In this document: piece after piece, positions 1,037 through 62,514 of the stretch | Numbering within the stretch: position 1 is the first letter of the stretch | How the letters are laid out: the number at the start of each line of letters is the position of its first letter | Made by a program: the position numbers and the translations under genes | From: Somniosus microcephalus | Lineage: Eukaryota | NCBI GenBank assembly: GCA_052327205.1 | Contig: JBMRGM010000043.1 | Coordinates: 31,682,001-31,746,000 of the forward strand | Length of the DNA: 64,000 bases | Reading direction: 5' to 3' | The notes under the pieces: model-generated | What the model was told of the DNA's origin: nothing | Databases searched by the model: none | The model's input: only the letters and a program-made list of their open reading frames with translations

Positions 1037-1291
1037 CCCATGTCCCAGAAGTAGTCCTTAGCAATCCGAGCGATGGAATCGTGAAAGAAGGGGAGACATT
1101 TTACCTGCAGTGTCGATACAGAGGCATGAAAACATTGGCTTATTGGTATAAAGATGAGACTTATATTCATTTTAAATATATGTTCTTTGAAAGATATGCA
1201 GATAGTCGCAGTGGAGCGTCTTACCAGTGTTCAGTGCCGCTGCCTTGGTCCTCCTCTGAGAAGAGTAAACCTCTGGATTTAGTCACCATTG
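1037..1291 (+). CDS. Gene A Ig exon 1 (FcR D1-like)
   Basis: ctacag|CC CAT GTC...ATT G|gtaggt; 255 nt, phase 1-1; LQC..WYK..SYQC; paralog of 35841-36092. Confidence 0.88.
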
Positions 1292-3107: not shown

Positions 3108-3374
3108 CTTCTGATATGAATTTAACTCTGGAAGTGAATCCAACATCCGCACTGTCATGTGACAGTATTATCCTCAAATGTTTGATGCCTTCCTGGAAAT
3201 GGAGAGAAGGTTTTCCCTTCCTGTGGTATCGAGATAAACAGTTAATAGCAGAAACTGACGAATCTCAGTACACCATAGAAAACGCAAAAGAGTCAGATAC
3301 GGCACCATATCGGTGTGAACTCAAAATACGTTACAGGAAGTGGATCTCCCCGGATGTAACCATCACCATAAAAA
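3108..3374 (+). CDS. Gene A Ig exon 2 (D2a type)
   Basis: tttgcag|CT TCT GAT ATG...AAA A|gttggt; 267 nt; LKC..FLWYRD..DTAPYRC; paralog of 37090-37350. Confidence 0.88.
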
Positions 3375-4162: not shown

Positions 4163-4440
4163 AACTCTTCTCCAAACCTAAACTGAGGACTGAGCCTACA
4201 GTTAAAATATTTGAGGTAGATCAGTTAAAATTCATTTTTTTTATTGAAACAATGCTGTTCAATATTAGGCTTCAATACACATTTCACAAAAATGGCAAAG
4301 CTCTGCAGTTGAATTCATACATCAACTCTAAGCACATGGGGGCAGCTTCTTTGAAGGGCTCGGTGACTTAGCCTTGTTGAGCAAATGCTTTCTACCACCG
4401 TGATAACAACAGAGTGATGAGGTTTCCATTACGGTAGAAG
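4163..4440 (+). pseudogene. Dead D3a-type Ig exon inside gene A
   Basis: Homolog of 40236 and 46307, but acceptor cacag>caccg, first Cys TGT>TTT, and in-frame TAG/TGA near 4368-4380. Confidence 0.88.
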
Positions 4441-5775: not shown

Positions 5776-6054
5776 AGCTCTTCTCCAAACCTACATTGAG
5801 GGCTGATTCTGAAGCTCAAATATTTGAGGGCCAACAGTTAAATCTCGCATGTTTGGTTGAAATATTTTGCTCCAATTCGTCTTTGAGATATGTATTTTTC
5901 AAAAATGAACAAGCTCTCAATTCAGCGGCAGACCACAACTATTACATCAAGGAGACATCACTGCTGGACGATTCGGGGATTTACCAGTGTGAAGCAAGTA
6001 CTTTGAACAGTGAGGTGAAGAAACTGAGTAATCAGGTTTCTGTTTCAGTCAGAC
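5776..6054 (+). CDS. Gene A Ig exon 3 (FcgRI/FCRL D3-like, D3b type)
   Basis: tatag|AG CTC TTC TCC AAA CCT...AGA C|gtgagt; 279 nt; ELFSKP..EG..LAC..YVFFKN..DDSGIYQCEA..KKLS. Confidence 0.9.
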
Positions 6055-6933: not shown

Positions 6934-7221
6934 GAATCCCAGTGTCCAAACCGGAACTGGCAATCAGCCCTGGTAAAGAGTTACTGGAAGGCGACACAGC
7001 ATCGTTAACCTGCTCAGTGTTCAACGGTTCTACCCCGATTACCTACATATTCTACAAAGGCCCAAATAAAGAACTCTTCCGAGAGGAGTCCAACCTAACC
7101 GAAATTACTTACCAAATCGGTAAAGTCAACCAAAGCACCCAAGGGGATTATATTTGTGGTGTTTCAAACGAAGCGACCAGACGTCCTCTACACAGCGATT
7201 TTGTTACGGTTGCAGTGCTAG
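6934..7221 (+). CDS. Gene A Ig exon 4 (FCRL D5-like, membrane-proximal)
   Basis: tacag|GA ATC CCA GTG...CTA G|gtgagt; 288 nt; PVSKPEL..LTCSVFNGSTPITYIFYK..GDYICGVSN. Confidence 0.9.
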
Positions 7222-7729
7222 GTGAGTTATTATAAATACCTCTGAGGCAGAACGAAACAAGTGACTCAGTGAGAACAGTCCGGGAATCACTGCTTTTGCC
7301 AATAGCTTGGACGTTGTAACATCTTCTTTGACATTCTTCTGTGTGAAGTGAGGCACTGCGCCATTTACATTAAACAGGTGAATGCCTAAAAAGAACAAGA
7401 ATGTCATCTGATTGCATCAAGTATTGGTCTACAAACTGCAACTGTTAGTTGTAGATTTAAAACGGCTGATCAGTCTGTTTAATTGACAAATTGAGAGAAG
7501 TTATACGGAGAGGTTAATGACGACTCAAATCTTAATACCATCGGCAGTAATTTTTGGGCTATAAATTTTAGAACATCATCTCTTAACCGTAGCTGCTAAT
7601 ACTTTTGTATTTGTATATGGGATTGGGCGTCGCTGGCAACATTTGCTTTAATTGGCCATCCCTAATTGCCCTTGAGAAGGTAGTGGTGAGCCACCTTCTT
7701 GAACCGCTGCAGTCCACGTGGTGATCATC

Positions 7730-8197
7730 CAAATTCAGTACCCTGTCCCTGCTTTCTACCCACATCCCTTGATCCTGTTAGCCTTAAGCAACATATCTAA
7801 CTCCTTCTTGAAAATAATTAATGAATTGGCCTCAACTTCCTTTTGTGGTAGAGAATTCCACAGGTTCTCCACTCTCTGGGTGAAGAAATTCCTCCTCATC
7901 TCTGTTCTAAATGGCTTACCCCTTATCCTTAGACTGTGACCCCTGGTTCTGGACTCCCCGACTATCGGGAACATCCTTCCTGCATCTAATCTGTCGAGTC
8001 CTTTTAGAATTTTATACGTTTTATTGAGATCCCCTCTCATTCTTCAAAACTCCAGTGAATATAAGCCCAATTGACCCAATCACTCCTCATACGGCATTCC
8101 TGTCATCCCAGGTATCAGTCCAGTTAATCAGCGCTGTACTCCCTCCATGGCGAGAACATCCTTCCTCAGATAAGGAGAACATCCTTCCTCAGATAAG
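7730..8197 (-). mobile_element. 5'-truncated CR1 LINE
   Basis: ORF 7756..8040 (MRGDL..RGHSLRIRGKPF..NLWNSLP); 23-nt tandem duplication at the truncation end. Confidence 0.92.
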
Positions 8198-8200
8198 TTA

Positions 8201-8387
8201 CTTGAGGGCCAACAGTTAAAACTCGCCTGTTTGGTTGAAATATTTCGCTCCAGTTCAGCGGCAGACCACAACTATTACATTAAGGAAACATCACGGCCTG
8301 ACGATTCGGGGACTTACCTTGGTAAAGCAACTACTTTGCACAGCGAGGTGAAGAAACTGAACAATCAGGTTTCAGTTTCAGTCAGAC
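8201..8387 (+). pseudogene. Truncated duplicate of the D3b exon
   Basis: Matches 5822-6054 with no acceptor or 5' part, an internal deletion, and the second Cys lost (GTYLGKAT); donor and about 120 nt of downstream intron retained. Confidence 0.85.
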
Positions 8388-8580
8388 GTGAGTACAATTT
8401 ACTGCAATTATCTATCATCTTTCATCCACTAAATTACCAACACATGCACACAATGGGATTCTTCATTCTGGCACAGGGCTTATCTATATGTTTAAGATGC
8501 ACTGTATAAATAAATGAATATATCCGTACATACTTGAAACCGTATTATGTTATTCATGGGATATGTTTATTTTATTCCAG

Positions 8581-8682
8581 TGCAGATTCACACAACCGCG
8601 ATCAGAGCCTCAGTTTTTACACTTTTTCTTGTTGCTGCCCTGATTGCACTGGTACTCGTCAATCGTCCCAACAAGAAACAAG
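8581..8682 (+). CDS. Gene A transmembrane exon with Arg (VQIHTTAIRASVFTLFLVAALIALVLVNRPNKKQ)
   Basis: ttccag|TG CAG ATT...CAA G|gtgagt; 102 nt, phase 1-1; AGA at 8604-8606; paralog of 50884-50985. Not in the ORF track. Confidence 0.87.
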
Positions 8683-9206
8683 GTGAGTCATGTTTTACAG
8701 GCAGGTGATTGGCTCTATAGTCACGTGAAGGGCTTCAGTGTATTCTATATTCAGTTGCGACATTCAAAATGCAACCATATTATTTGGGCAAAAGAGGGAT
8801 AGTCTGGGCTGGAAAAAGAAAAATGTTATTTGAAATGACGATCTCAGAACAGACAGGAGCTTAAGACTGGGGCGAATTTGCCCAGTTAAGTGTTTTTATT
8901 TCCCTTTGTGCTGTTCAGAATTGATATGCATGTGGCCGAGGGGTAGAACAATAAGTGGCAGCATCATTCGTGGTTAGTGTGAGGAGACGATGCATCCTAA
9001 AGGATTTGTAACGCGGTATATGGTAATATCTTACATGTTTCTGTATATCTTTTCTGTATTGATTCTGTATTAATAAGTCATTTAATGCACGTTTGTAAAA
9101 GTTTAGATTTAATGTGAATGAATACGTTTGCAGTTAAACAAATCCACCTGTACAGCAATATTTATTGTACAACTTGCTGAAGTAGGTCTCTTCCTGTTTT
9201 ATCCAG

Positions 9207-9237
9207 AAAATTCTTCAAGAATTTCACAATCGTTTGG
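9207..9237 (+). CDS. Gene A cytoplasmic mini-exon 1 (ENSSRISQSFG)
   Basis: atccag|...GG|gtaagt; 31 nt, same length and phase as 51513-51543. Confidence 0.8.
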
Positions 9238-10149
9238 GTAAGTCCACGCAATTTTTAGCTGAATAAGCCATAGCTATATCCCTGAATATACTCAGTCTCT
9301 GTATAGCTGAACTAAACGCGGTAAATGCTTGTGCGGTAGATTTTATCAATTGCATTGAACTTTAATCTGGCATTACGGATCAGCCTCCTGTTATAGAAAA
9401 CACCATATTTTAATTTAATTTGAGTTGAATGGGATTGAAAAACATGTGGTTTCTACAACGCGTGTCTGTTCTGCTACACCACTTTTTATTCCGGGCACCG
9501 AGTTGGAAAATCTGCCCCATTGACGATAAGCCTTTACTGTAGCTCGCACTCAAACGATTACACTCCCTGCAGTCTATAAGGAGTGATCATTTTCTAAGTT
9601 ATGTCAGTTGTACCTGAACTTCCTAACTTAAACAGAGTGAAATTCGCCCTGCGTGGCACAGTAAAAGGGGTGATTACAAATCGTTTTACAGTCCGCAGAT
9701 TAGATTCCAGTGACTTGTAAACAAATATTGGGCGGAGTGTAAAAACTGTTGGAGTTTCGTTTAACCCTGCTCTCCACCACCGCCCAAGAAGAAATTATAC
9801 CCCAAACTCTTCAATCACTCAGTGAGCTGGACTATTCTTTAATCCTCCAATTTAATCCTCATGTAAATCACAGGGACCTGAAGCATTCTAGGATTTGGTG
9901 TGCAGGGCGATTGCGCATGTAGTTAATTTTAGTAACATTCACACACTGACTATCTCAGGCAGTGGTCCATTTAACTGAACAAGCTTTTCTGGATACAGTT
10001 CTACTATTGATCAGCTTGAACAGTGTTTGTTGGCTTGGAATATCTAGTCCCCTTGTGAATCCAGTCGCTGTTTATTTTCCGACTCCCCTATGCTGGACAT
10101 CATTCCACATGTGTTTTAACCTCTGACTGAATGTTGCTTGAACTTTCGA

Positions 10150-11470
10150 TACGCTTGTGTGGCCCTCAATTTGAAACTGTGGCACTCTTCTAGAGCTTCG
10201 GTATGGAAGCACATCTCTATACGCATTACCCAATCCTTTCATAACCATAAATAATAATTTTTAAAACTTCTCCATCTTCTTTCAAGATTGATTTTTTTTT
10301 AAATTACTCCAACTCCTTTCAAGGCTTTATCTCCCTGGTTTTGTAACTAATCTAGTGACCCAGCCTTTATATTCAACAAGCGTCTAGTATGTTTCTCTTA
10401 TTAAAAAGATATCAACATTGTATTCACTGCGCCAGATGTGGGACATCTGCTGGGCAGAGCACAGAAAGGAAGATCTGGTCGGAATGATCTCTTGCTGAAA
10501 GCAGAAACGCTTGATTTCTGTTCCATTAAGTACCGTGAAAGGAAAAGCCTGCATGTTCTGTAAAAGATGTGTTAACCTCTCCACCATATTCTCATCTTTG
10601 CATTCCTTCAACATGATTCTTAACAAACAAATGGCAGGAAAAATCATTGATACCCCATGAACTTGCATCAATACCAATTATACATTTACGGTTATCTTTC
10701 TTGATTTCTGTGGCCCTCAATTTGTAACTGTGGCACTCTTCTTGAGCTTCGGTATTAAAACGCATCTCTAAGCACATTCCACCATCCTGTCATAATCATA
10801 AATAATATTTCAAAAAACTTCTCATTCTTCTTTCAAGACTAATTTTTTCAAAATACTCCAACTCCTTTCATCACTCTGTCCCCTTGGTTTTGGAACTAAT
10901 CTAATGATCCTGCCTTTACATTCATCAAGAGTCTAATATGTTTCTCTTATAAAAATGATATCAACACTGTACTCACTGCGCCAGATGTGGGACATCTGCT
11001 GGGCTGACAGCATAACGTATGTTCAGTTGGAAGGTATCCCTTGCTGAACGCAGAACCGCTTGATATAAACACATATAAAACACATCTGTATGCACATTTC
11101 CCAAAAACCTCTTAATCATAAATAATTATTGCTAAACTTCGCATTATTCTTTCAAGACTGAATTTTATCACAATACTCCAACTCCTTTCAAGGCTCTATC
11201 GCCCTGGTTTTGAATGTAAGCTCGTGACACGCCCTTTATATTCAACAAAAGAATCAATGTTTATTTTATTAAAATGATACCAGCACTGTACTCCCTGCGC
11301 CAGATGTGGGACATCTGCTGGGCAGAACACAGAAAGGAAGCTTGGTTGGGAAGGAGCTCTTGCCGAAAGCAGAACCACTTGCTCCCTGTTCCATTAAGCT
11401 GCGTGCAAGGAAAATCCTGCCTGTTCTGTAAATGATGTGTGAACCTCTCCACCAGGTTCCTCTTTGATTT
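10150..11470. repeat. Intronic tandem triplication, unit about 550 bp, later copies partial
   Basis: ctgcgccagatgtgggacatctgctgggc near 10427, 10976 and 11295; tgtggccctcaatttg near 10158 and 10709. Confidence 0.85.
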
Positions 11471-12572: not shown

Positions 12573-12658
12573 GGAGGCAACTAGAAACAGACCTCCAAGT
12601 GAAGAGAATTCTGCAGACAATTCCGAGTCTGCAGGTGTGCGATCAGCTCAAAGCACCG
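12573..12658 (+). CDS. Gene A cytoplasmic exon 2 (EATRNRPPSEENSADNSESAGVRSAQST)
   Basis: cttag|G GAG...ACC G|gtaagt; phase 2-1; paralog of 53573-53664 with Ser in place of Tyr. Confidence 0.8.
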
Positions 12659-12924
12659 GTAAGTTCAACCTGATCAGCATGTGATGAACCGTAGATTGTT
12701 TGGGGTAACATTTCCATCGGAAGTTCTCTCCAATATCGTTATCACTTCGGCAGAAGTTAGGCTACAACTCCAGAGAGATCACCCTTTCTGCAAGTTTTCC
12801 ACGGAAATTCCACCAACGTTACGACGAGACATTGGGAAAAACCACATAGAGTTTCTATTTCCTTCTCTGCGTACACTCAGCACAATCTAGCGTTAGGTTT
12901 TCTTCTTCACTGTCTGGATATTGA

Positions 12925-13620: not shown

Positions 13621-13648
13621 AAACCGTCATTAATCTCTGATATTACAG

Positions 13649-13689
13649 TCATACTCTTATGGACACCTGTTGCTTGCGAAACTGTGTAA
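13649..13689 (+). CDS. Candidate terminal exon of gene A (VILLWTPVACETV*)
   Basis: ttacag| acceptor, phase compatible with the previous exon, TAA at 13687-13689, AATAAA about 30 nt downstream. Confidence 0.5.
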
Positions 13690-13726: not shown

Positions 13727-14687
13727 ATTGTGCCTTATGTAAAGAATCAAAGTTAAGTTATACTAATATTGCAGTTAATTTACTTGGATACTCTTAAGAG
13801 CCGAGATGGATTTCCTTCTCCACCACTCGGTCGAACGAAATAAAAGTGATCTTACTGTCCTTAGATATCTTTTTCTTAATCTTTATATTCGATCTGATAA
13901 TTAATTCCTTGTGAAAACATATCAAACGAGTAACAGAAATGGACTCAAAATGTGCAATACAATAGAGAATTTTGCATTGATAGAATGTTAACTTCCTTTC
14001 ATGGAAAGTTTGAATCTTCTGACTGTAACGAGGCCCATGTGACATGAATCATCAGCAACTGGAAGGCAATCGAGAGCCTGAGCACCAAGAAGATAAATAC
14101 AGATGTTCGGAGTCTACAGGAATCTACAGAAAATTCTGAAGGCAATAGTTGAAGCAAGCATGTTATTCCTACAAGTGACTAAAGAACGATATTACTGGGG
14201 AGCACCTCAGTTCGTGATGTTCATTCAAAGCAAAAACTGTCAATCGTCACGATTCAACCACGATTTGGATTTTTCTTCACAAGAGCCTCTATGTACAGAA
14301 CCTGATTCATTTCATTGCTGTATACAGCTGTTGATGCCTCATCACAGAGAATAAGGGGCCCAAGTTGAATAACTTCAGCATCTGTTTCTGGATGTAGATG
14401 CCATGAGGCCAATGATCTAATGAAACTTTTGATAAACTAGCTTCCTGACTGTGCCTGAAATATTTTCATTCTGACCTAAATGACTTTCGATCGCTTGGAC
14501 ATTTCGCTTGTATACGCCAGATTAATAACTGCTTACCTCCCAGATGTTTCGGGACATCTTCTGATTGATTGATTTCGCCTGGAGTTTCTGTATTGGTACT
14601 AATTGTCTGCTTATAAACCTGGATGTATCATTTCAGCTACTGAAGAATTGGATTAGGTTCTGGACAGTTTCATGTGTAAGCCTTATT

Positions 14688-34539: not shown

Positions 34540-34569
34540 TGCAAATTACTCATCAGGCGACCACACAAG
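34540..34569 (+). CDS. Gene B leader mini-exon (30 nt; QITHQATTQ)
   Basis: tcttctctctttcag|TG CAA...CAA G|gtatga; phase 1-1; conserved copy at 25173-25202. Confidence 0.75.
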
Positions 34570-35840: not shown

Positions 35841-36092
35841 CTCCTGGGCCGGAAGTGCTGGTTAGTTTTCCCAGCAGTGGTGTGGTAAAGGAAGGAGAGG
35901 AATTTAAGCTGCAGTGTAGATACAGTGGCAAAGCTACTTACACTAATTGGTTAAAAAATAATATACATTTCCATGAACCTCAGAGTGAGTTTTATGAATC
36001 ACTAGCAGACAGCAGCAGTGGAGGCTCTTACCAGTGTGATGTATGGTCAAACAAATCGGAGAGGAGTGAGGCTCTGGAAGTGGTCACAATCG
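35841..36092 (+). CDS. Gene B Ig exon 1 (D1-like)
   Basis: ctgcag|CT CCT GGG...ATC G|gtaggt; 252 nt; LQC..W..GSYQC. Confidence 0.9.
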
Positions 36093-37089
36093 GTAGGTGA
36101 ACTTTGACACTTAATAGCATAGAAAATAGACAAAAGACAGAATAAGAAGCATTCATATAGCGTCTATCACGACCTCCGATTGCACTGCACAGACAATTAA
36201 TTACTTTTCAATATAGTCACTGATGTAACGTGAGATAAGTGACAGCTAGTTCGGGCAGAGCAAAGCTCCCACAAAGAGCATTGTAATAATGACCAGATCA
36301 TTTTACACTTCTATGCTTGCTCTAATGATTGCTCTTTCAATTATTTTTGTTGGATTTTTGACGTCCATCTAAGTGGGGATATGGGGCCTCAGTATAATGT
36401 CTCATTGGAAAGGAACCGTTTCCTGCAATAACGACACCGGGAGTCTCTGGTGTGGGATTCGAACCAACGCCTTATTGTGGCAGAGGCGATTGAGCCACGC
36501 CTACTGTTGATTATTGGCTGCTGAGTCAATCCGCTGGAAGTGGCCACCATCAGTCGCTGAACTTTGACCCATAGTCAGCTCAGCTCTTGTCACGAAAATT
36601 TACTGTTTTAAAGAGGACTCTCAGTATATATTGTGAGACAGTGTATCAAACATATTACTTACTTGAGCAAAATTGCCAAGTGGACACTGGGATGAATGAT
36701 ACCATTCTGCCGCAACTCCCTTCAACCAGCTCTGCTCTAAATAGAACAATCCCAGCTCCTTAAGTCTCACCACACCCAATGAACAAATACCAGTCGTTCC
36801 TTGAGAGAGTGCCGAGTTTGTTGCTGATTTGTAGAATCGGGTTTCGAAGTAAAAGTTATTTGATGAACGTTTGAAGGACAACATACGGGGCATCAGCTGA
36901 ACATAAGAAGGGACACGTGACTTTCTAATGCCACATTTGTCTCTACAGCTTTTCGGGTTATAGGCCTGTTGTTCTTTACTGAAGTGATTACTATAGATGC
37001 ACTCTAATGGAAATATACTATAGGATGTCATACCTGTAGTTTAACATATTACAATTTGTACTTACTTAATATTTCTTACATATTTTCAG

Positions 37090-37350
37090 CTTCTGATATG
37101 ATTTTAACTCTTGAAGTAAAACCAAGAGCCACGCTGTCAGGTGAACGAATTATCCTGAATTGTTTGGTGTCTGACCAGAAAGGGAGAGGATACTTCCTGT
37201 GGTATCGGAAAGAAGAGATAATACATGGAAGTTCTCAATCTCAGTACATCATAACTAAAGCAGAAATTGCAGATGGGGCATCTTATCGGTGTGAATGCAA
37301 AATAGGCTACAGGAAGTGGGTCTCGCAGGAAGTAAATCTCACCGTAACAG
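37090..37350 (+). CDS. Gene B Ig exon 2 (D2a type)
   Basis: ttttcag|CT TCT GAT...ACA G|gttggt; 261 nt. Confidence 0.9.
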
Positions 37351-38931
37351 GTTGGTCGCTGGCTTTGCTGTTTTCCTCCCAAAGTTGCTGCTTGTTAATT
37401 TGCTGAAAGATAGAAAACGATGCGAAGAACATTCTTTGGCTGGACAATTTTTGTTTAAGTTGGTAAATATTTGCAATTACTGGGAAAACATTCCAAGCTG
37501 TGCATTGTAGGCAAGCTTCTGGGTCGCATGTGGCAAAATCAGACACTGCGTTAACTGTAAGGGCCCCATGAATCCGTAGGAGTGCATGTCTCCTTCTCGG
37601 TTGCTCCTGAGAATTATCGGGAAATGTCGTTGGAGTTCATCTGCATTTCATTTCCGTGCTCTCACGCTGCTGGGCGATTGCATGGGCATCCCCGTGCTCA
37701 TATCATTAGACCTGCATATGGGCTAGTAATAAGAGGGTGGTTAGAATGTGGAACTCGCTCCCACAGGGAGTAGTTGAGGGAACAGCAATTAAGGTGAAGC
37801 TAGATAATTACATGAGCGAGAAAGGAATTTAAGGATATCTTGATGGGGTAGATGATGAAGGCTGGGAAGAGACCCGTGTGGAAGATAAGCACCTGCATGG
37901 ACCTATTGGGCCGAATGGCCTGGCTCTCTGCTGTAAATACCGTGTACAATGTACTATGAGTCTGGAGGGATGTTTCTGGTCTTCCACAAAAGTTTCCTAT
38001 TCATTTACAATGGCGGACCCCAAGAGAGGAGGGCTCTTGAAGGACACTGGTGGTGGAGCTTTCGTCCGCTTAATCTGCCAACCAAAGTCTTTGTGAGGAT
38101 CCAAGGGCATCCTAAAGTGATAAAAAGGTAGGTAGTTATTTGAATTAAATTCTCACACCCCAAACTCCTGCCTGTCGATCGTAGGTATTGGAAGATTTTG
38201 AACTGCTAATTTGTGACTGCAACCAGAAAGCCCCATTTCAAAGTTAACATGAGTCTCCTGGCAGTGATCTCGGTCCTACTGATGTGTATGCAAACCAACG
38301 TAAGACCATCCCAACATAGGCGGATTTGATGCTAATGGATGGAAGATTGTAGCTGGTTCAGGCTTATAGCTGAGGCCTGGAATATTTGGGGCACTCTTTA
38401 CCTTATGTTGACAACGCATCTCTGGGACCTTGTGCCCACTGGCCGATTCAGAAGGCAAAATGAGCTGGATGCACTCCTTCCAGAATCTGGTGCTGTGGAT
38501 GGAATGCTCCTCAAAAAATCCGGCGTAATTTCCTTCTTTTGAAATCAAAAGTGTACATATACGGCGGGTTCAGAAAGCAATAAGTGATCCTTTGTGCCGG
38601 ATTTTCTATTCCCTTTTCTGCTTATGAGTTTCTTAACCGCCGTACCCAACATAGATTATTTTCAGTGTTCCAACCTAAGAGTAGCTGGGCCAAATGGGGG
38701 AAAGTGCTGCAGGAGGAGAGCAATATCAATAAACCCAAATTGGAACCATCAGTATATTCAACAGCAACTGTCCACTGCTTCCTTTCTGTTCTGTATTTGC
38801 CCCAGCCTGGATTGGATTTGGGATTGGGATTATATAACGTGTCCAATGTATTCGGGCTGTTGTCGAAGCAGTTCTTCGTTTGATTTAATCATTTGTTAAA
38901 CTAAACTACGAAATTTTGTTCCCAACATTAG

Positions 38932-39186
38932 ATCGCAATGTGGCCTTCCAGGTCGACCCACCTTCGGTTTTGGAAGGAGATGTTCTGAATCTGAATTGTC
39001 GGTACAGAAAATATTATTTGTGGAAAGATGTTGGCTTTTACAAAGGAAATAGAAGGATCCACTCAATGAAGTTGTATTATTGGAACGCTCTGCATAGCAT
39101 TAGGGTGAATAGTTCAAAAGACAGTGGATCATACCATTGTACTATTGACGAGAAAATTTCTCGAAGTGTTCATGTTCACGTTCACG
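38932..39186 (+). CDS. Gene B Ig exon 3 (FcR D2-like, D2b)
   Basis: attag|AT CGC AAT...CAC G|gtacgt; 255 nt; FQVDPPSVLEGDVLNLNC..FYKG..DSGSYHC. Confidence 0.9.
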
Positions 39187-40235
39187 GTACGTATGCAAAA
39201 TTTCAATTGGTGATATCCCTCTTTAATATTTATAAATATTACTGGTCCGAGAATTTCTGAATCTGTACAAAATTATATATAGTTCTGTGATCTCGGAATA
39301 ATTTGTTCACGTTAGGTCATATGATGTTTGTCTAACAACGTGCTACTTTAGTCGATATTTAACACGGGCGGGTCTCCTCCCATGCCAGCTCCAGCAGATT
39401 TCTTTCTCCTCCCGACCCACCTTTGAGGAGAATTTGGCGGCTTCCTCCATTACCACCATGTGACATCTAGAGGCTGACGGGCAGTTTTCTGCCACGAAAC
39501 CGAAATTTGATGCTGCCTCTGTCCTTAATAAGCACGATGAGTATATTTGACATAAAGTACCAGCAGGTCCTCGTGAGACCCTGGAACGTCAGTGGTCGGT
39601 CCGCTGACGAACATTGTGGAAGGATAGAATAAGCAGTGTGCTCCTCTCCACTCTGTTTTGCTATTTTCACTTACGTGTTTGGCGCAAACTTCGCCACAGA
39701 CCCCTAATAAACTATGGGAGCAGATTCCCTTGGATGCCCTTGTCATCGCAGCGGGTGTGTTATATCATCACTGATCCATCACCCTGGCCGTGAGAACCTG
39801 GAGTCTTTGTAAATTGAGATGGTGACAACGGAGCAGGGGGCTTTGTTGGGGACAGAGCGATTTTGCTGCGACCAATTGTGGAGTTCACCGTGGTCATAGT
39901 AGATGGTGAGACACGGCAGATAATGGCTAAAAGAGAAAAGAGCTATGGGAGGATTCCTGCTGAAATATAAGTCTTGTCCTGGTTGGAATTTCTGTTTCAG
40001 CCCTTTATATTAAGCAGATTAAGATCTCCGCAAACAAAGCAGCGAGAGGAATTCCACAACAATATAGTAATGCTTCCTGCTCTAGTGTTCCACAATACAG
40101 CTGCTAGTTACCGTTAATTGTAGACGCCCCTCGTGGCGATTTGCGGTATTGCCTTGCTCCTATTAAAAAGCTCTGCTGTCTGTTTAACTCAGTGATAGGA
40201 AATGTTACCTGTCAATCCAGATTCTGCTTTCACAG

Positions 40236-40511
40236 AACTCTTCTCCAAACCTAAACTGAGGACTGACCCTGCAGTTGAAATATTTGAGGGACACCAGTTA
40301 GTATTCATCTGTATTATTGAAACAATGCCGTACAGTAATGGGCTTCAATACTCATTTTACAAAAATGGCGAAGCTCTGATATTGACTTCATACAACACAT
40401 TTAAGCTCACGGAGACAGCTTCTTTGAAGGACTCGGGGACTTACCTGTGTGAAGCAAATATTTCCTACCGCGTTGTGAAAAAGAGTGATGAGGTTTCCAT
40501 TGCGGTTAAAG
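40236..40511 (+). CDS. Gene B Ig exon 4 (D3a)
   Basis: cacag|AA CTC TTC...AAA G|gtaagg; 276 nt; ELFSKPKL..C..YSFYKNG..DSGTYLCEA. Confidence 0.9.
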
Positions 40512-41840
40512 GTAAGGACAGCCAGCTGTAATTATAGTTGAATGAAAGAATTCTTCAGGGGATTATACTTAAATAAACATACGAGAGGGATCCAGTCTGG
40601 TAAAGGATTTACCCACAAGTTTATGACGTAATAATCAATTTTGAATGCAACCTGCTAAATGACAGCGCCACCTGGTTCTTACACTATCCATACATTTGCT
40701 GAAAACCGAAGTTTTAAAAGCTGCTACGTTTGAGGACCAGCGCCCACTCCCAGTGGGTAATAGTAGCTTCCTGAAATAGTGTGGAATTGGGCGATATTGA
40801 ATTTATCTCCCATTATATGTCCCGACCGTTTTTGCATCCATTGATCTTCAATGGACAGGAATATCGCGCGTAGTGTAGAATTGGTGCAAGATTCGATGCC
40901 GTGCATTTTAACCCATAACCCCAAGGTAAAGTTACCTTCCCTGTTTCTAACTGGCATATTCAGCAGCGAGCAGAACCTGGTCAGGAACAGCAGGGTGATT
41001 AATCAGCCAATGCCTTACCACTTACTAGCCCCGGAAATCTTTTATAGTTGAAAACTCGGGGGTAAAATTTAACATTGAGAGCGCTAAAACTGAACGGCAG
41101 AAAATTGAATTGAAATTGGCCTGTGTTTATAAAGGGTGAGCAATCTGCTACCACCGGTTTTTTACCCCAGACAAACTTGAATTTTCACCCCCTCCAATTT
41201 CAGTAGCGGTGGATGCAAAATGCCCGAGGTCACTAACGTCTGTGCCTCTGGTGCCCGGGGATTCCTTCCCAATCTTTTAGATCCGACCAATCATAACTCG
41301 AGCTTCGCATTTTCAATGGAGCAGGCAATCTGAAAACAAGGTGGGAGTTATCAATCCTGTGTCGGCAGTGGATTTCAGAAAAATTGTATTGATAGTAGCT
41401 GAGCGTTTAACATGAAGGTCCTAAAATTTGCAGGTGCTGCCACAACGACCAAGGATATTTCAGTATTTAAGACCCGGGAGTAAAGCATCGCCTGGGCTGA
41501 GAGCAGAGTTCAAATGATGGGGTTGTGGGGTTGGGGTGTTGGGGGATAATCTCACAGGACCCGCAGGATGTTTCTTCCATTCATTTCAATGGAAGGGTTA
41601 ACTTGTTCCCAAATCTAGCCACGACAGGATGTTCAGATCTCAAGTGATAACTGTGTCAATGTCCCGAACTGTATATTCCCGTGGCAGAGCGCAATCAAGG
41701 ATTATTGAAAGCCTCTTTCTCTGAGCTGCTGTCGGCTTTTCATTCTTCTGCTCATTAACGTGAGCTGTCCAAACACATAAATTGTTAAGTCTGTGATGGA
41801 TGTGGAACCCGGAAAATCCATGCATTATTCTATTTTATAG

Positions 41841-42119
41841 AGGTCTTCTCCATACCTACACTGAGGGCTGAGTCTGGAGCTCAATTATTTGTGGACCAAC
41901 AGTTAAATCTCGCCTGTTTGGTTAAAATATTTCGATCCAATACTTCCTTGAGACTCGTATTTTACAAAGATGGACAATCTCTCACTACAGCGGCAGACAA
42001 CAACTATTACATCAAGAAGGCATCTCGGCCGGACGATTCGGGGAATTACTGGAGCGAAGCAACTACTTTGAACAGTGAGGTGAAGAAACTGAGTAATCAG
42101 GTTTCCGTTTCAGTCAGAT
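41841..42119 (+). CDS. Gene B Ig exon 5 (D3b; second Cys replaced by Ser)
   Basis: tatag|AG GTC TTC...AGA T|gtgagt; 279 nt, open; DSGNYWSEA. Confidence 0.75.
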
Positions 42120-43191
42120 GTGAGTACAATTTAAGACAATGTTATAACACTTTTAAAGAGAACATGAAAATCATAGAATACGGGTAGCGTACACCAGGGA
42201 AGTAAAAGTGTATTCACCAGGATAGACTTGAGGTATTGGGACTAACACTACCGGGTTAGCCATAGCTAAAGGTTATTTCATTAGTGGTTTTTAAATGCAA
42301 ATTCCGAAATTGGGCGATTAGGGAAAGATATTTTCTCTGATTGCGAAGACAGGAAGGAGGGATCAGTAATGTATAATTATCATTAAAGCGGGAGGGTAGC
42401 GCTTAGAAGGACGTTCTTTATATAGACGAGTGCTGGAACATAGAATGATTTGCCAGGTGGAGCGGTGGAGTTAGATAGAATTTTACAGTGAACATGAGGC
42501 TAGTGGCAGTGCCCTCGGGCCTACTGATGTGCGCCTGTCACTGCCCTACAGAAACCAGCGTAAGCCCGTCCCAACATAGGCAGATCTCTTGCTAATGGAT
42601 GAGAGAGTGTAGCTGAATCAGGCATGTAGCTGAGGCCAGGAAGGTTTGGCGCACTCTTTCCTTATCGTCACAACGCAACTCGGGCACTGTGTGCCCTCTG
42701 GGAGGCTCAGAAATCAAAAGGAGCTGGATGCACACCTTCCATAATCTGGTCGGAGGGGGGGATGGAATGCACCTCACAGAATCCGGTGGAGTTTCCTTCT
42801 GTTGAGATCAATGGAGTACATTTACTGTGAGTTCGGTAAGCAATAAGTGATCACTAGTGCTAGATTTTCTAATCCCTTATGTGCTCGGGCGTTGCTTAAC
42901 CGTCGTTCCCAAAATAGTTTATTTTCAGTGTATCAAACTAAGAAGAGCTGGGCCAAATGGTGGGGAGCTGCTGCACGAGGATAGATTATCAATAAACCCC
43001 ATTTACAACCATCAGTAAATTCAACACCACCCGACTGCTGTTTCCTTTCTGTTCTTCTTTTTCCCAGACTTGCCTGGAGTTGGGATTGGGGTTTTCTCGT
43101 GTCCAATGTATACGGGCTGTTGTGGAGCAGTTCTCAGTTTGAGTTAAGCATTTGTTAAGCTAAAACCGCCACATTTTGTTCCCAACATTAG

Positions 43192-43449
43192 ATCGCAAAG
43201 TGGCCTTCAATGTCGACCCACCTTCGGTTTTGGAAGGAGGTGTTCTGAATCTGAATTGTTGGTTCAGAATGCATTATTGGAGGCATAAAGATGTTGGCTT
43301 TTACAAGGGCAATATAAGGATTCACTCAATGAAGTTGACCGATCGGAGAGCTCTGCATAGCATTAGAGTGAATAGTTCAAAAGACAGCAGATCATACCAT
43401 TGCACTGTTGGCAATAAGGAATCACGAAGTGTTCATGTTCACGTTCAAG
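43192..43449 (+). CDS. Gene B Ig exon 6 (D2b duplicate)
   Basis: attag|AT CGC AAA...CAA G|gtacgt; 258 nt. Confidence 0.88.
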
Positions 43450-43584
43450 GTACGTCGGCAATATTTCAATTGGCGATATCGCTCTTGGATATTTATCCAT
43501 ATTACAGGTCCGAGAGGTTCTGAATCTGTCCACATTTATGCATAGCTGTGTGAGCTCGGAAGAATTTGTTCGTGTTAGGTCATA

Positions 43585-44304
43585 GAGGCCTTGAATTTCC
43601 GTTCGGCGGTTTCCTGCCGGTAGATGCCTCCAATCGGAAACAAATCTACGAACTTACCTGCTGGTTTGGAGAGCCCGAGGCTTCCGATCCTGGGCCTCTC
43701 CTGTTGGAAATGCGCAGAGGCCCAGGTATCCCAGGGGCACATACGGTTTGCAAGCGCTCCTGGGATCACGTGAGAAAGGCGAACAAATCAAAGAAGGGAA
43801 TCCCCCTTCATACATTTGACAGGTCTGTAGGGACTGAACTGTCAAAAGTATGATTGGGAACCACATTTAAAAACACACTAAAACAGTAAATAAACTATTT
43901 AAAATTACAAAATTAAAATGAATTAAAATTCCATTTAATTAAATATTTTAAACATAATTTATAGAAAAAAAATTAAACATTTTTACTGGGCTATAAATAA
44001 TTTACCGTTTCAAGAGTATTTCTAACTTATAAGTGAGTGATCAAATTTGTTATTTCTAACTTTCATCACTCTTATGCCTACTTTTACCAGTCGGACGAAT
44101 TCTACAGCCTTTCAGCTGCCGGAAGTTGTGCAAACTCTCCAGCCACAGAGGCTCTTTTCTTGGGCAAGTGGATCATCTGTCAAGAGAATTCTTGACAGAT
44201 CGCAGGTGCCGGTTTTAAGCGCATACCTGAAATCGGTACCTGCAAGGCCCCTATGGGTGAGTACACAGCTCGTATGCACCCGTGGGGGTTGGAAAACTTG
44301 GCCC
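43585..44304. mobile_element. MITE related to 33514-34279, opposite orientation
   Basis: Imperfect TIRs ggccttgaatttcc / ggaaaacttggccc; empty paralogous site near 39320; AT-rich centre. Confidence 0.78.
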
Positions 44305-45134
44305 ATGATGGCTGTCTAACACCGTGCTACTTTAGCCAATAATTAACCCAGGGTGGGTCTCCTCCCGTGCTAACGCCGGCAGCTTTCTTTCTCCTCCCGC
44401 CCCACCTCAGAGGAGAATTTGGCGGCTTCCCATTACCAGCCTGTTACATCAAGAGGCTGACGGGGAGTATTCCCCCACTAAACCGAAATATGATGGTGCC
44501 TCTCTCCCTAACAACCACGATGATGAGTTGACAAAATGCACCAGCAGGTACTCCTGAAAATTCAGTGGTGGGTCCGCTGATGGACTGTGTGGAAGGACAC
44601 AATAAGCAGTGTGCTCCTCTCCCCTCTCTTTTGCCCTTTCCACTTACCTGTTTGGCATAAGCTTAATCACAGGCTCCTAATAAAATCTGTACACTAATGC
44701 CATTGGATGCCCTTATCATCGCAACGGGTGAGTTATATCATCACTGATCCATCACCCTGGCCGGGAGAATCGGGAGTCTTTTTAATTTCAGATGGTGACA
44801 GCTGAGCTGGGGGCTGGCTAGGGACAGAGCAATGTAGCTGTGGATATTGGTGGAGCTCACCCTGGTCATACTAGATGGTGAAGACGCAGCAGAGAATGGC
44901 TAAAAGAGAAAAGATCTAAGGGAGGATATTCCTGCTGATAATTAAGCCTTGCCCAGTATGGAATTCCGGTTTCAGCAGAATAAATTAAGCAGGTTAAGTT
45001 CTCCGCAAACAAAGCAGCGAGAGGAAATCCATAAAAACATAATAATGCTTCCTGCTCTAGTGATCCACAATACAGCTGCTGGTTACCATTAAGTATAGGC
45101 GCCCATCGTGGCTATTCTCTAGATGTAATCTCTC

Positions 45135-46215
45135 CAAATTTGCAGACAACACAAAGCTTGCTGGGCGTGTGTGCTATGAGGAGGATGCCAAGAAACTCCA
45201 GGCTGATTTGGAGAGATTGGGTGATTGGGCAAAAGCGTGGCAGATGCAATATAACGTGGATAAATGTGAGGTTATCCACTTTGGTGGCAAAAACAGGAAG
45301 GCAGATTATTATCTGAATCGCAATAGATTGGGAGAAGGGGAAGTGCAACGAGACCTGTGTGTCCTTGTGCACCAGTCGCTGAAGGTAAGCATGCAGGTGC
45401 AGCAGGTGGTTAAGAAGGGAATTGGCATGTTGGCCTTCGTAGCGAGATGGTTTGAGTACAGGAACAAGGATGTCTTGCTGCAGTTATACAGGGCCGTGGT
45501 GAGACCACACCTTGAGTATTGTGTGCAGTTTTGGTCAGCTTATCTGAGGAAGGATCACAGATCACAGAAACCCCACAGTGCAGATAGAGGCCATTTCGGC
45601 ACATATCCCACCCAATCCCCGTAACCCCTACACCAAAACATATCCCCATTTAATCCCCCTAACACTAAGGGTCAATTTATCATAGCCAATCAACCTAACC
45701 CGCCATGGAAGGAGTTCAGCGAAGATTCACCAGGCTGATACCTGGGATGGCAGGAATGACGTATGAGGAGAGATTGGGTCGATTGGGCTTGTCCTTGCTG
45801 GAGTTTAGAAGAATGAGAGGGGATCTCATTGAAACTTATAAAATTCTGACGGGACTGGACAGACTAGATGCAGGAAGAATGTTCCCGATGGTCGGGCAGT
45901 CCAGAACCAGGGGTCACATTCTAAGGATAAGGGGTAAGCCATTTAGGAGAGCAATGAGGAGGAATTTCATCACCCAGAGAGTGGTGAACCTGTGGAATTC
46001 TCTGCCACAGAAGGCAGTAGAGGCCAATTCATTAAATATATTCAAGAAGGAGTTGTATATATTTCTTAAGGCTAAAGGGATCAAGGGGTATGGGGATAAA
46101 GCAGTGACCAGGTACTGAATTTGGTTGATCGGCCATGATCGCATTGAATGGCGGAGAAGGCTCGTGGGGCCGAATGCCAACTCCTGCTCCTATCTTCTAT
46201 GTTTCTATGTTTCTC
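45135..46215 (+). mobile_element. CR1 3' portion with a nested inverted HE1-like SINE tail (about 45556-45702)
   Basis: ORFs 45169 and 45705 are CR1 RT C-terminus; the start of the interruption is the reverse complement of 20527-20570; absent from the paralogous intron near 40140. Confidence 0.92.
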
Positions 46216-46306
46216 GGTATTGGCTTGCTCTTATTATCAATCTCTGCTATTTGTTTAACACAGTGATAGGAACTGTTACCTATCAATCCATATTCTGTTT
46301 TCACAG

Positions 46307-46585
46307 AACTCTTCACCAAACCTAAACTGAGGTCTGAGCCTGCAGTTGAAATACTTGAGGGAGACCAGTTAAAATTCATCTGTTTTATTGAAAATATACC
46401 GTCAAATATTTGCTTAAAATATTCATTTTACAAAAATGGCACAGCTCTGATCTTGACCCCATACTACAAATATATTCTCACTGAGGCAGCTTCATTGAAG
46501 GACTCAGGGACTTACCAGTGCGTAGCAAATGCTTTCGACTTTGGTGTGAAAAAGAAGAGTGATGAGGTTTACATTTCGGTAACAG
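46307..46585 (+). CDS. Gene B Ig exon 7 (D3a duplicate)
   Basis: cacag|AA CTC TTC ACC...ACA G|gtatgg; 279 nt, open by manual translation; missed by the ORF track. Confidence 0.88.
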
Positions 46586-47773
46586 GTATGGACATCCAGC
46601 TTTAATTATTGTTCATCTTTCATTTAAAGAATTCTTCAGGGCATTATAGTTAAGTAACCATACGGGAGGGATCCGGTCTGGTAAAGGGTTAACCCTCAAG
46701 TTTATCGGGTATAAATCAATTTGAATGCAATCTTTTCAAATCTTATCACCACGTGGCTCTTATACAATCCTTACATTTGCTGAAAACCGCATTTGTAGGA
46801 GCTGCAAAATTTGAAGTCCAGTGCCCACTCTCAGTGGGTAACATTAGCTTCCTTCAGTAGTGTGGAAATGGGCGATTATGAAATTGCCTCCCATTATTTG
46901 TCCCGCCCGTTTTTGCTTCCCATCATCTTCAGCAGACAGGAAAATCGTGCGTGGTGTACAATTGGCGCAAGCTTCGATATTGGAAATTTTACCCCATGGC
47001 TCCAAGGTAAAGATACTTGCTCTGTTTCTGTCTGGCTGAATGAGAAACCAGCAGAACCTGGTCAGGAATAGCAGGGTGTTTAATCAGACAAAGCCTTAGC
47101 ACTTACTAGTCCCGGAAATCTTTGATAGTTGAATACTCGGGGGTAAAATTTAACTTTGAGAGCGCAGTAGCGGATCAGCAGACAATGGAATTGAAATTTG
47201 CCTGTGTTTATAACGGGAGGCCAATCTGCGACCACCGGTTTTGCACCCCATCGAAATTTGAAATTTCACCCCGTCCAATTTCAGTAGAGGTGGAAGAGGA
47301 TGAGGAAAAACGCCCGAGGTCACTAAAGTGTGAGCCTTTGATGCCCAGGAATTCCGTTTCCACTCCGTTAGATCCGGTCAATCATAACGCTATCTTTGCA
47401 TTTTCTATGGAGCAGGCAATCTGATGACAAGGTGGGAGTTATCGATCCTGTGTTGGGAGTGGATTTCCAAAGAATGGCATTGTCAGTTGCTGAGCTTCTA
47501 GCATGAATGTCGCAAAGTTTGCAGGCGCTGCAACAATGACGAAGGAGACTTCAGTATTTAAGGCCTGGGCGCAAAGCATCATCTAGGCAGAGAGCTGAGT
47601 TAAAATTCTGGATCAGGGGCGCGTTCTGGTGTTGTGGGCTAATCTCACAGGACCCGCAGGATGTGTCTTCCACTCAATGTTCCAAAGATTAACATTTGCT
47701 GCACAAATCCGAAATTGTAATGTCTGTGATAGTTGTGGAATCTGTCAAATCCATAATTCGTTCTATTTTATAG

Positions 47774-48052
47774 AGCTCTTCTCCGAACCTACTTTGCGGG
47801 CTGATTCTGGAGCTCAATTATTTGAGGGCCAACAGATAAAACTCGCCTGTTTGGTAGAAATATTTCGATCCAATTCTTCCTTGAGACTCGTATTTTACAA
47901 AGATGGACAACCTCTCAATTCAGCGGCAGACCACAGCTATTACATCAGGGAAGCATCTCGGCCGGAAGATTCGGGGATTTACCGGTGTGAAGCAACTACT
48001 TTGAACCGTGAGGTGAAGAAACTGAGTAATCAGGTTTCAGTTTCAGTCAGAC
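47774..48052 (+). CDS. Gene B Ig exon 8 (D3b duplicate)
   Basis: tatag|AG CTC TTC...AGA C|gtgagt; 279 nt; EDSGIYRCEA. Confidence 0.9.
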
Positions 48053-48742
48053 GTGAGTACAATTTAAGATAATTGTTTATCACTTTTAAAGAGAACAGGA
48101 AAATCATAGAGAACGAGTAACGCTGATTCAACAGATGATGCCAGGGAATGGAAATTTTATTCAACAGGATAGACTTGAGCCACTGGGACTAACACGGGTT
48201 TGCCATGCCTAAGAGTTATTTCATCAGTGCTTAGTACATGCCAATTGCGAGATAGGGCGATTAGGGAAAGCTATTCCCTCTGTTTGCGAAGACAGGAAGG
48301 AGGATCAGTAAAGTATAATTATCACTAAAAGCGAGAGGGTAGCGCTTACGTGAACATTTTATGTGTAGCTGACTGCTGGAAAGTAGAATTATTTGTCAGG
48401 TGGAACGGTGAAGTTAGATACCACTGCATTTAGGTAGAGTAATGTTTATGGTATTGGAATAGTGCAGAGTTCCTGCTTTTCACTAGCAGAGTCAGGAGGA
48501 ATAAGGACCAGGCCAACATAGTAGGGTGGCCATAAGTGGATTGCAGTAGGAATCATTGTCGTTCCAGGATCAGGCTTTCCTCTATTAATTCCACCTACTG
48601 CTAAAGTAGGAGAGGGAGACGGGCGCCCAATATTGGTGTGGTAACCTATATGTCGAGCCTTCTTTATTATGATGAGAACCCTATTTCACTTTGAAAGTAA
48701 TGCTACAAATTCTGCAAAAGCAATGTAATTAACAATTTGCAG

Positions 48743-49030
48743 GAACCCCAGTGTCAAAACCGGAACTGGCAATCAGCCCTGGTAAAGAGTTAATAGAAGG
48801 AGACACAGCGTCGTTAACCTGCTCAGTGTTCAACGGTTCTACCCCGATTACTTACATTTTCTACAAAGACCCGGATAAAGAACTCTTCCGTGAGGAGTCC
48901 AACCTAACCGAAATTAATTACCAAATCAGTGAAATCAACCAAAGCACCCAAGGGGATTATAGTTGCGGTGTTTCAAACAAAGCGACAGGACGTCCTCTGC
49001 AAAGCGATGTTGTTACAGTTTCAGTGATAG
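48743..49030 (+). CDS. Gene B Ig exon 9 (D5-like)
   Basis: ttgcag|GA ACC CCA...ATA G|gtgagt; 288 nt; about 15 aa differences from 6934-7221. Confidence 0.9.
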
Positions 49031-50883: not shown

Positions 50884-50985
50884 CACAAAGTCACACAACC
50901 GCGATCACAGCAGCCGTTCTTCCACTTTTTCTGATCGCTACCCTGATTGCACTGGGTTCCTTCAAACTTCGGAAAAAGAAACAAG
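50884..50985 (+). CDS. Gene B transmembrane exon, uncharged (QSHTTAITAAVLPLFLIATLIALGSFKLRKKKQ)
   Basis: ttccag|CA CAA AGT...CAA G|gtgagc; 102 nt; basic stop-transfer segment. Confidence 0.88.
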
Positions 50986-51512: not shown

Positions 51513-51543
51513 ACAATTCCTCAAGTGTTTCACAGCCGCAGGG
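51513..51543 (+). CDS. Gene B cytoplasmic mini-exon 1 (DNSSSVSQPQG)
   Basis: atccag|...GG|gtaagt; 31 nt. Confidence 0.82.
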
Positions 51544-53572: not shown

Positions 53573-53664
53573 GGTGACAACTGAAAATAGATCTGTACCT
53601 CCGAGTGAAGAAACATCTGCGAGCAATTTCGAGTATGCAGTTGGGGGATCAGCCCCAAATACTG
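53573..53664 (+). CDS. Gene B cytoplasmic exon 2 (VTTENRSVPPSEETSASNFEYAVGGSAPNT)
   Basis: caaag|G GTG...ACT G|gtaagc; phase 2-1; paralog of 12573-12658. Confidence 0.8.
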
Positions 53665-54647: not shown

Positions 54648-54704
54648 CTTCTAGTTCTGATCAGGTAACCTACAGTTTAGTACAAGGCACGAAGCCCATG
54701 GAAG
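54648..54704 (+). CDS. Gene B ITIM exon 1 (ASSSDQVTYSLVQGTKPME)
   Basis: Strong polypyrimidine tract, ctacag|...GAA G|gtaagg; 57 nt, phase 1-1; VTYSLV fits (I/V/L/S)xYxx(L/V). Confidence 0.85.
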
Positions 54705-55450: not shown

Positions 55451-55516
55451 ATATTACCGGAAATGCTGCCAATTTAGTGTATTCGGAGGTCACGATCAGA
55501 AAGTCACGAGAATGTG
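55451..55516 (+). CDS. Gene B ITIM exon 2 (DITGNAANLVYSEVTIRKSREC)
   Basis: T-rich tract, tttag|AT ATT...TGT G|gtaaat; 66 nt, phase 1-1; LVYSEV. Confidence 0.85.
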
Positions 55517-60830: not shown

Positions 60831-62514
60831 CAACAAACCATTACGAAAAGATGTTACCCCTATGGTAACACCTTCCCCTCCAAGTCACACACCATCCTGA
60901 CTTGGAAGTACATTGCCATTCCTTCATCGTCGCTGGGTCAAACTCCTGGAACTCCCTGTCTAACAGCACTGTGGGATAACCTTCACCACACAGATGCAGC
61001 ATTCCAAGAAGGCGGCTCACCACCACCTTCTCCAAGGCAATTAGGGAGGAGCAATAAATGCGGGCCTTGCCAGTGATGCCCACATCCTGTGAATGAATAA
61101 AAAATTATCATCCCTTGTTTAAATTTAGTCGTTGGTTTATTCATTGCTCGTTTCATTCCAACCATTTTCTTTAATTTTTTTGCTATAAAATAAATTCAGA
61201 GAGGAATCATAAGTGTATTTTTGTGTGACCTCAGCCAGTTAATTGTCAGTAGTTTTGAACACACTGAAAATCGGGCGATATTGAATTGGCCATCCATTAT
61301 CCATCTCTCCCGACTTCCCTTCCACTGAAATAACCACTGATTCTACCTCGCCAGCTGTGCACCACCGCCTGAGACCAATTTCAGCTTCCTGTTCATTAAT
61401 TCCAGGCTAACAAGAATGGTCCCAACGACTATTGTGTCACATACGCCATAGTTAACCGTGCAAACACTGAAGCTAGTTTGGAAGGAGGCCCAATGGAAGA
61501 AGGCTGTGTCTACGAAAACTTTCCACGGAAATAAGAGCAAAGCAGGATTAACAAGCATAGAAACAACAAAGAAAACAGAATGGAGGCAACGGCAATCAAC
61601 TTGTGCTCTGCGCAAATTACCTGCCCTCAGGGACTTTAGTCTGAAGGCAGGTTAGGCCATTGTTCCTTGTGCAAGGCCTTCTAGGCACAGAGTTCGTGCC
61701 CGCCAGCCATTCAATTTATACGTATGTTTTACTCTGACAGGACTTTATATCTCTGCAGCTTATATTTTGCAGAGGGCTCCTACCTCTGGCTTTGGTGGTG
61801 CTACCTGCAAGACTATACTGTTTGTAAGACCATTACATCAGAATGTATACCCATTTTATCCATGTTAAAATGCAATTAACTAACGGGCGTGTTGGGGCTC
61901 TTGCTCTAATATTCTGCCAGTGTTCTTGAATGCTTCCGTAACTGCAGAGGGAGATCAGTAGATCTTCTGGAGAAATTATGCAAATGGCCGAAGGTGGGAG
62001 AAAACCTGTAGCAATTTCCAGGGTCAATTTTTTCTTTAATAATGTTGTAAAATGAATGCTATCAAATTGACCGCTTGTATAACCCCACGGCCTATTTACT
62101 TTTCCATTATTTTGAATAAAGGAAAAGCGGGCATGATGTACAATGGGAGCCTTGATTGATATCATACATTTCCCATCCTCGCCCAAATTCCAATCTATCT
62201 GAATGCCACAAATAAACTGTGTATAGAGTAACTGGTTACTGCTTAATCTTCATCACCTTGGGGTTTAGCATTCGAGGGGCAGAGCGCAGGATAATACATC
62301 TGGCGGGGAGGATGGCTTGTTACTTGCAAAACCCATCGAATTTTGCTTTCTTTCAGCCTTTAAACATCAGGCCATTCCGTTACCGGTATCCCTCTTGCCA
62401 AATCTTCCATCCACATTCTGGCGGTAAAGTCTGAACTCTACCTCACCATATATTAGTGCCAAATGCATAAGACATAGCGTTTTGTATTGCTACATGATAT
62501 GATGGGATTTTAAA

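Follow-up and report, generated by a model that had tools for sequence, protein, structure and literature searches.

A predicted activating, arginine-bearing class of receptor genes without the main ITIM exons in a Somniosus microcephalus cluster assigned to the FCRL-related family

From teleosts to mammals, immunoglobulin (Ig) receptors are well known to occur as activating and inhibitory pairs. All FcRgamma partners of the arginine type carry this residue at the N-terminal end of the transmembrane (TM) segment; in CD89 it lies at TM position 3, against the Asp at position 6 of FcRgamma, and a lone Arg placed in polyleucine gave FcRgamma assembly at 11% of the wild-type level (PMC1440944; articles are cited here by PMC number and from excerpts of their text). 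The TM1 type of the Xenopus XFL receptors has been shown to need or bind FcRgamma (PMC2413239; PMC4536121), and the TM motif of the classical activating FcRs is (M/L)Fxx(D/N)TxL (PMC2413239). As for sharks, a survey of 2014 found neither FCRL nor FcRgamma (PMC4016189), later database annotation names shark FCRLs, and B cells of the bamboo shark express fcrl3/fcrl5 (PMC11372145). No description of an Arg-class shark FCRL was found in the literature searched, which covered papers outside subscription. A 2021 paper in Immunogenetics on the LITR/FCRL regions of fish reportedly included the elephant shark and may bear on novelty.

We analysed a stretch of 64,000 nucleotides of the S. microcephalus genome (the window), in which two genes, A and B, made of C2-type Ig exons are arranged head to tail. 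Their features are the following.

1037..1291, + strand: gene A Ig exon 1, N-terminal C2-type domain
3108..3374, + strand: gene A Ig exon 2 (FcgammaRI/FcepsilonRI domains match it weakly)
4163..4392, + strand: gene A broken Ig exon, predicted to be skipped (acceptor CG not AG, first Cys lost, in-frame stops)
5776..6054, + strand: gene A D3-like Ig exon (donor 6054 joined to 6934 in a contig of data set X1)
6934..7221, + strand: gene A membrane-proximal Ig exon, FCRL D5-like (best match FCRL5, E 7e-30)
8186..8386, + strand: gene A relic Ig exon with an internal deletion, just 3' of a LINE fragment
8581..8682, + strand: gene A TM exon, Arg class, 102 nt, phase 1-1 (8579-8682 is covered by an RNA-like X1 contig whose loose ends look exon-like on either side)
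8604..8606, + strand: gene A Arg codon AGA, residue 9 of the TM exon
9207..9237, + strand: gene A cytoplasmic exon c1, 31 nt
12573..12658, + strand: gene A cytoplasmic exon c2, 86 nt (tyrosine codon here TCT, Ser)
14009..14013, + strand: first coding bases of the terminal exon in the Arg class (one Val codon is completed and TGA follows)
34540..34569, + strand: gene B second leader exon, 30 nt
35841..49030, + strand: gene B ectodomain, nine Ig exons
50884..50985, + strand: gene B TM exon, Thr class (ACA at 50907-50909)
51513..51543, + strand: gene B exon c1
53573..53664, + strand: gene B exon c2
54648..54704, + strand: gene B ITIM exon c3 (VTYSLV)
55451..55516, + strand: gene B ITIM exon c4 (LVYSEV)
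61406..61534, + strand: gene B terminal exon, ITIM (VTYAIV) and a further Tyr

Gene A consists of four intact and two broken Ig exons, the Arg TM exon, c1 and c2; its leader exons precede the window, at about -4054 and -1292. The model computed for it has 418 amino acids in an open frame, and c3 and c4 are absent from the 21 kb that follow. Gene B consists of nine Ig exons, a neutral TM exon and three ITIMs, located in c3, c4 and the terminal exon, and the phase of its exons implies a further small exon between c4 and the terminal exon, which was not located. The fifth Ig exon of gene B (41841-42119) is without the second canonical Cys. An orphan second leader exon was observed at about 25173, where a duplicated relic region (20.6-33.5 kb) also contains first leader exons in repeated form.

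The locus is assigned, by its protein matches and its leader exons, to an FCRL-related family of cartilaginous fish. In searches of the PDB, the D5-like exon of gene A matched LILRB1 with an E-value of only 5e-4, far behind FCRL5, and the D3-like exon of gene B gave FCRL5 and FcgammaRI as best matches. The FcR matches of gene A exon 2 ranked behind NCAM1, exon 1 gave no FcR match, and the 34-residue TM exon returned a single unrelated match (E 1.1). A word-indexed search of longer proteins with the D5-like exon gave no match, but later protein searches did; the nearest proteins in the databases are from sharks and rays, most of them annotated as Fc receptor-like. The leader is split over two exons of 31 and 30 nt, as in the FcR/FCRL family, and the second one measured 30 nt in all three copies seen. 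LRC genes have a second leader exon of 36 nt. Since the shark exon is 30 nt and not 21 nt long, we filed the locus as FCRL-related and not as an orthologue of any mammalian FCRL; the 21-nt form belongs to mammalian FCRL1-6 and to only a fraction of the Xenopus XFL genes (PMC2413239).

The original prediction was that a single-base difference, AGA in gene A against ACA in gene B, separates the Arg TM from the neutral TM. Both codons are present at 8604-8606 and 50907-50909, and both TM exons have 102 nt, share CAC ACA ACC GCG ATC and are bounded by AG and GT in phase 1; the shared 18-nt pattern has two exact matches in the window, against 0.02 expected by chance. The single-base story itself is wrong, however, as the exons of genes A and B differ at 24 of 102 nt (76% identity) and at 15 of 34 amino acids. 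Two genome searches for TM exons, in each of which 40 of the 46 candidates were scored, yielded 46 distinct exons, all on contig C43, 21 with AGA (Arg class) and 25 with ACA (Thr class). Eleven nucleotides and seven amino acid positions are fixed between these 21 Arg and 25 Thr copies, the Arg base being among them, and the difference between the classes is one of the whole 3' module, not of one base.

A homologue of ITIM exon c3 was found downstream of all 25 Thr exons and of none of the 21 Arg exons, and the same distribution (25/25 and 0/21) was obtained for the ITIM terminal exon; a stop exon homologous to window 14009 followed 19 of the 21 Arg exons and none of the 25 Thr exons. By word-7 BLAST of the window and of six other Arg loci (about 20 kb each), no c3 or c4 of an Arg gene was found. 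The proposed co-occurrence of Arg with ITIM loss thus holds for the main ITIM exons, but not for c2, which is kept by the Arg genes and retains its tyrosine, within the weak ITIM-like motif SxYxxV, in all six older Arg lineages. Gene A and four of the five sister copies checked have Ser for this Tyr (the fifth sister was unread by the pattern), and none of four computed tail forms of gene A contains a Tyr. In a tree of 29 distinct TM-plus-intron sequences, each class fell on one side of a branch with a support of 100/100 and one change, the Arg column having been kept in as 1 of 505 columns. Because the 46 copies form two clades, the perfect association between Arg and ITIM loss amounts to a single event, and no significance test is reported for it.

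Several features of the cluster were recorded along the way. A pair of Arg and Thr genes recurs about every 70 kb at 30.3-31.9 Mb of C43, with 98-100% identity and partly inverted (30.38-30.64 Mb), which reflects either very recent tandem amplification or, in part, haplotype or assembly redundancy. Further copies lie on C43 at 25.3-25.5 Mb and 21.5 Mb. Four Thr genes (C43 30916k, 31354k, 31477k and 31767k) have two copies of the c3 ITIM exon. Three tail modules, two of the ITIM type and one of the Arg type (near C43 30456k, 30590k and 30937k), showed no TM exon in the stretches examined, and a stop-exon match at C43:30941420 was rejected as a 22nd Arg gene, as the preceding 9.9 kb contain no TM exon.

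The end of the Arg-class transcript was read from a contig of data set X1, which comes from another organism, 90-95% alike, and covers 8579-8682 with 14 differences. This contig runs from the end of a D5-like exon through the full Arg-class TM exon into letters that match the window from 14009 at 27 of 30 positions; base 8605 is not listed for it, and its 3' end and the exon to which it is spliced were what placed it in the Arg class. The joint is in frame and yields one Val and a stop, that is, a tail of about eight residues without Tyr, and the longer tail with c1 and c2 is still Tyr-free in gene A. The identification of X1 as RNA is an automatic guess, supported by GT..AG-type joints; a second X1 contig is of the Thr class, and the 6054 to 6934 junction comes from a third. 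The C-terminus of the Arg class may lie either in the exon at 14009, as the X1 splice indicates, or at the conserved TGA reached by read-through of the c2 donor, both being possible. No RNA data set was listed for 5700-7300. At 93% likeness the RNA runs X6 and X7 had no depth on either the TM or the tail exons, and at 80% X7 gave a single read, too little to be of use; most reads fell on a LINE, and the DNA contigs of X4 and X5 had no readable base at 8605.

In order to establish the direction of change, 43 homologues were examined, seven of which were dropped for want of a real TM match (six by script and P0038 by eye). Arg at position 9 of the TM exon was found in none of the remaining 36, the closest of which (Heptranchias and Heterodontus) carry Thr; the homologue databases contain cluster representatives only, so that an Arg class in those species is possible. 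Arg is thus the derived state, as the proposed convergent gain would have it. Compared with the Heptranchias proteins, the Arg class shows T9R, P14T, F27V, K28N and R30P, and these changes, together with the Thr of the closest homologues, identify the Arg exon as a remodelled neutral exon and not as an NxxR module. Both ITIM loss and the direction of change are better supported now than they were in the first reading.

With regard to possible partners, the genome contains two TM exons of the zeta/FcRgamma type, both with Asp. The one on contig C40 has FcRgamma as its best PDB match (E 3.7e-12), and its gene has an ITAM-type, YxxL-bearing last exon about 10 kb downstream, the middle exons not being located. 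The zeta-type gene (C14) and the FcRgamma-type gene (C40) are separate and lie on contigs other than that of the receptor cluster.

The Arg exon was correctly set apart from two known TM types. It is not of the classical FcR type, since the corresponding motif is absent and no Asp or Asn occurs in residues 10-27 of any Arg copy, and it is not of the LITR type with Lys, as none of the 46 exons has a Lys in residues 7-27. The further likening of its TTAIR context to the TM Arg of LRC receptors stands as regards the N-terminal position of the residue, but not as regards NxxR: Asn three residues before the Arg was found in two of the 21 copies, gene A having Thr there, and the closest precedent is to be sought not in the LRC alone but also in the Xenopus FCRL family. 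The upstream DYT and the acidic C-end residue (PMC6557307) are absent from all 21 Arg copies, and TM and tail are not one exon, since the TM exon ends in a donor and is joined by splicing to a separate stop exon. The two Asn copies (C43:31830965 and 31540893) recreate N-x-x-R and lie within the Arg clade; frameshifts are present in the one for which upstream exons were read. A TM Arg in N-terminal position, in some cases in an NxxR context, was also observed in multi-Ig proteins of bony fish (CD22-like, HSPG-like and FCRL2; P0078, P0009, P0034, P0126 and P0036).

The reading we favour, with a probability of roughly 0.55 on the strength of the sequences, is that the Arg class forms the activating side of a paired family and pairs its TM Arg with the Asp of FcRgamma (or zeta). 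Ligand binding would cluster the Arg-class receptor, the TM Arg, if within reach, would pair with both Asp residues of a dimer of FcRgamma or zeta, and the signal leading to cell activation would run via the adaptor ITAM; the Thr class, predicted to be inhibitory, would recruit phosphatases through its ITIMs. The Arg class would have arisen once, by the five point changes listed above, from the family's own neutral TM exon, losing c3, c4 and the ITIM-bearing terminal exon and acquiring a new last one, and the finished 3' module would have been copied and placed behind different ectodomains. It is thus likely an independently evolved activating partner, in which the Arg is one of several changes and adaptor binding is predicted.

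Whether the Arg enters the membrane was judged from hydropathy windows only, which place it ambiguously: the 21-residue Kyte-Doolittle window covers residues 7-27 in all Arg variants, which makes the Arg TM position 3, a register that fits that of CD89, but the 19-residue windows start at 10-12 and leave it outside in all 21 copies. The 21-residue Eisenberg window spans 7-27 in gene A's 11-copy subfamily and shifts to 10-30 in the older copies, 10 in number, and the Zimmerman windows are mixed. These shorter or shifted windows favour a functional short-tailed receptor with an interfacial Arg, in which the loss of K28 and R30 would let the helix slide to 10-30 and which would serve as a decoy or bind adaptors independently of the Arg; we hold this to be unlikely, though the most serious of the alternatives. 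Basic residues at positions 7-8 (Lys/Arg) occur also in ITIM-bearing homologues of shark and ray (P0012, P0035, P0163 and P0172), the Asn of NxxR is missing in 19 of the 21 copies, and LITR 2.6b binds adaptors without its Lys (PMC4810170), all of which would suit an interfacial residue. In the gene A subfamily, however, Arg29 restores the cytoplasmic anchor and both 21-residue windows are 7-27; the run of uncharged residues after the Arg is 18 here and 17 in a toad DYT/NxxR protein, within the 15-18 of four other Arg-TM matches, which are putative comparators as regards adaptor use and from whose range P0099, with a Lys seven residues on, was left out. Moreover, the gain of Arg and the loss of the ITIMs fall on the same branch.

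A decaying lineage, which lost its ITIM exons and whose neutral Arg was multiplied by segmental duplication along with the Thr neighbours, appears improbable. It would account for the TM exon pN/pS of 0.96 among seven Arg lineages, which, with 18 of 34 residues invariant, gives no specific signal of selection on the Arg; the Thr class also has a high value (1.6 among 10 lineages), so that the test has little power. It would likewise fit the broken Ig exons of gene A, the TM-less orphans of both classes and the state of the six older Arg loci: in three, no family Ig exon lies in the roughly 20 kb upstream; two are disrupted by frameshifts or stops, in one case with a TT donor behind the TM exon; and the last combines a GC donor with the absence of a stop exon. 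In the 11-copy subfamily, by contrast, gene A and one sister are open throughout with AG/GT ends and three further sisters have four intact Ig exons in the part examined, another sister being without one Ig exon. Two further points speak against decay: among the Arg lineages the TM exon has diverged only about half as far as the intron that follows it (0.12 vs 0.23), and another organism joins a TM exon of the Arg class to the same stop exon. Far less probable still is inheritance in place of convergence, in which the Arg would have been kept from the old NxxR TM module of LRC and Xenopus FCRL. An NxxR TM has been suggested as the ancestral one of FcR/KIR receptors (PMC2413239), and two Arg copies do have N-x-x-R; these lie inside the Arg clade, however, and the lack of DYT, the separate tail exons, the close identity of the Arg exon to the Thr exon, the homology of introns, c1 and c2, and the neutral form of the outgroup shark and ray proteins largely refute an inherited module.

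The activating reading can be taken further, tentatively and at somewhat less than even odds, to one shark lineage having invented an FcRgamma-coupled receptor de novo in an FCRL-related family, by Thr-to-Arg at TM position 3 and tail remodelling and without the NxxR module that tetrapods reused; the 3' module would still be swapped by LINE-mediated recombination, and one sub-branch would have gained the NxxR Asn. A 7-kb 3' module, about 99% identical (window 7719-14700, starting at the LINE), stands behind a different, 78%-identical ectodomain in three of five sisters checked (near C43 30843k, 31394k and 31613k), and the break at the LINE fragment suggests recent module swapping by recombination. 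If the de novo reading is true, the cluster would show, as an experiment of nature, whether adaptor coupling needs no more than the Arg. Whether the polar residues located one turn above the Arg of CD89 matter is treated as an open question in a 2026 review (PMC13107469), and the excerpt of PMC6795676 says nothing on it. For this question the cluster is a ready mutational series, because the Thr and Arg exons are so similar and two copies have gained the Asn.

Among described proteins, the automatically annotated elasmobranch 'Fc receptor-like protein 2/3/5' (e.g. XP_067833440.1 and XP_038642884.1) belong to the same family and have the domain types, neutral TM and ITIM tail of the Thr class, whereas an Arg-class TM or tail was found in none of the 36 TM-bearing proteins examined. 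Teleost LITRs such as IpLITR 2.6b are paired fish Ig receptors whose stimulatory type binds FcRgamma-type adaptors, but, unlike the shark Arg, the charged residue of catfish LITR 2.6b is a Lys and is dispensable for adaptor binding (PMC4810170). The activating KIRs took the same route as proposed for the shark, their activating form having been derived from an inhibitory one whose TM is otherwise similar (PMC6557307, citing Abi-Rached and Parham 2005); they use a central Lys and DAP12, however, and the shark class an N-terminal Arg. The activating receptors of the LRC (CD89/FcalphaRI, LILRA, GPVI, NKp46 and OSCAR) share with the shark class an N-terminal TM Arg, a short tail and few basic residues at the inner boundary, but the shark ectodomains match FCRL5/FcgammaRI far better than LILRB1, and its TM lacks the DYT and the acidic C-end described for the LRC (PMC6557307) and, in 19 of 21 copies, NxxR. 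In Xenopus, the XFL genes form an expanded FCRL-type cluster in which about equal numbers of Arg-TM short-tailed genes and neutral-TM ITIM genes are intermingled, with domain shuffling, as in the shark (PMC2413239). XFL TM1, nevertheless, has NxxR, is homologous to the TMs of the LRC and is encoded with the tail in one exon, whereas the Arg exon of the shark goes back to the neutral exon of its own family, is mostly without Asn and is followed by separate tail exons. If the Arg class couples to FcRgamma, sharks would have a full paired system with an Arg solution independent of the conserved NxxR module, and the Arg class is likely convergent on the Arg solution of the LRC and Xenopus receptors.
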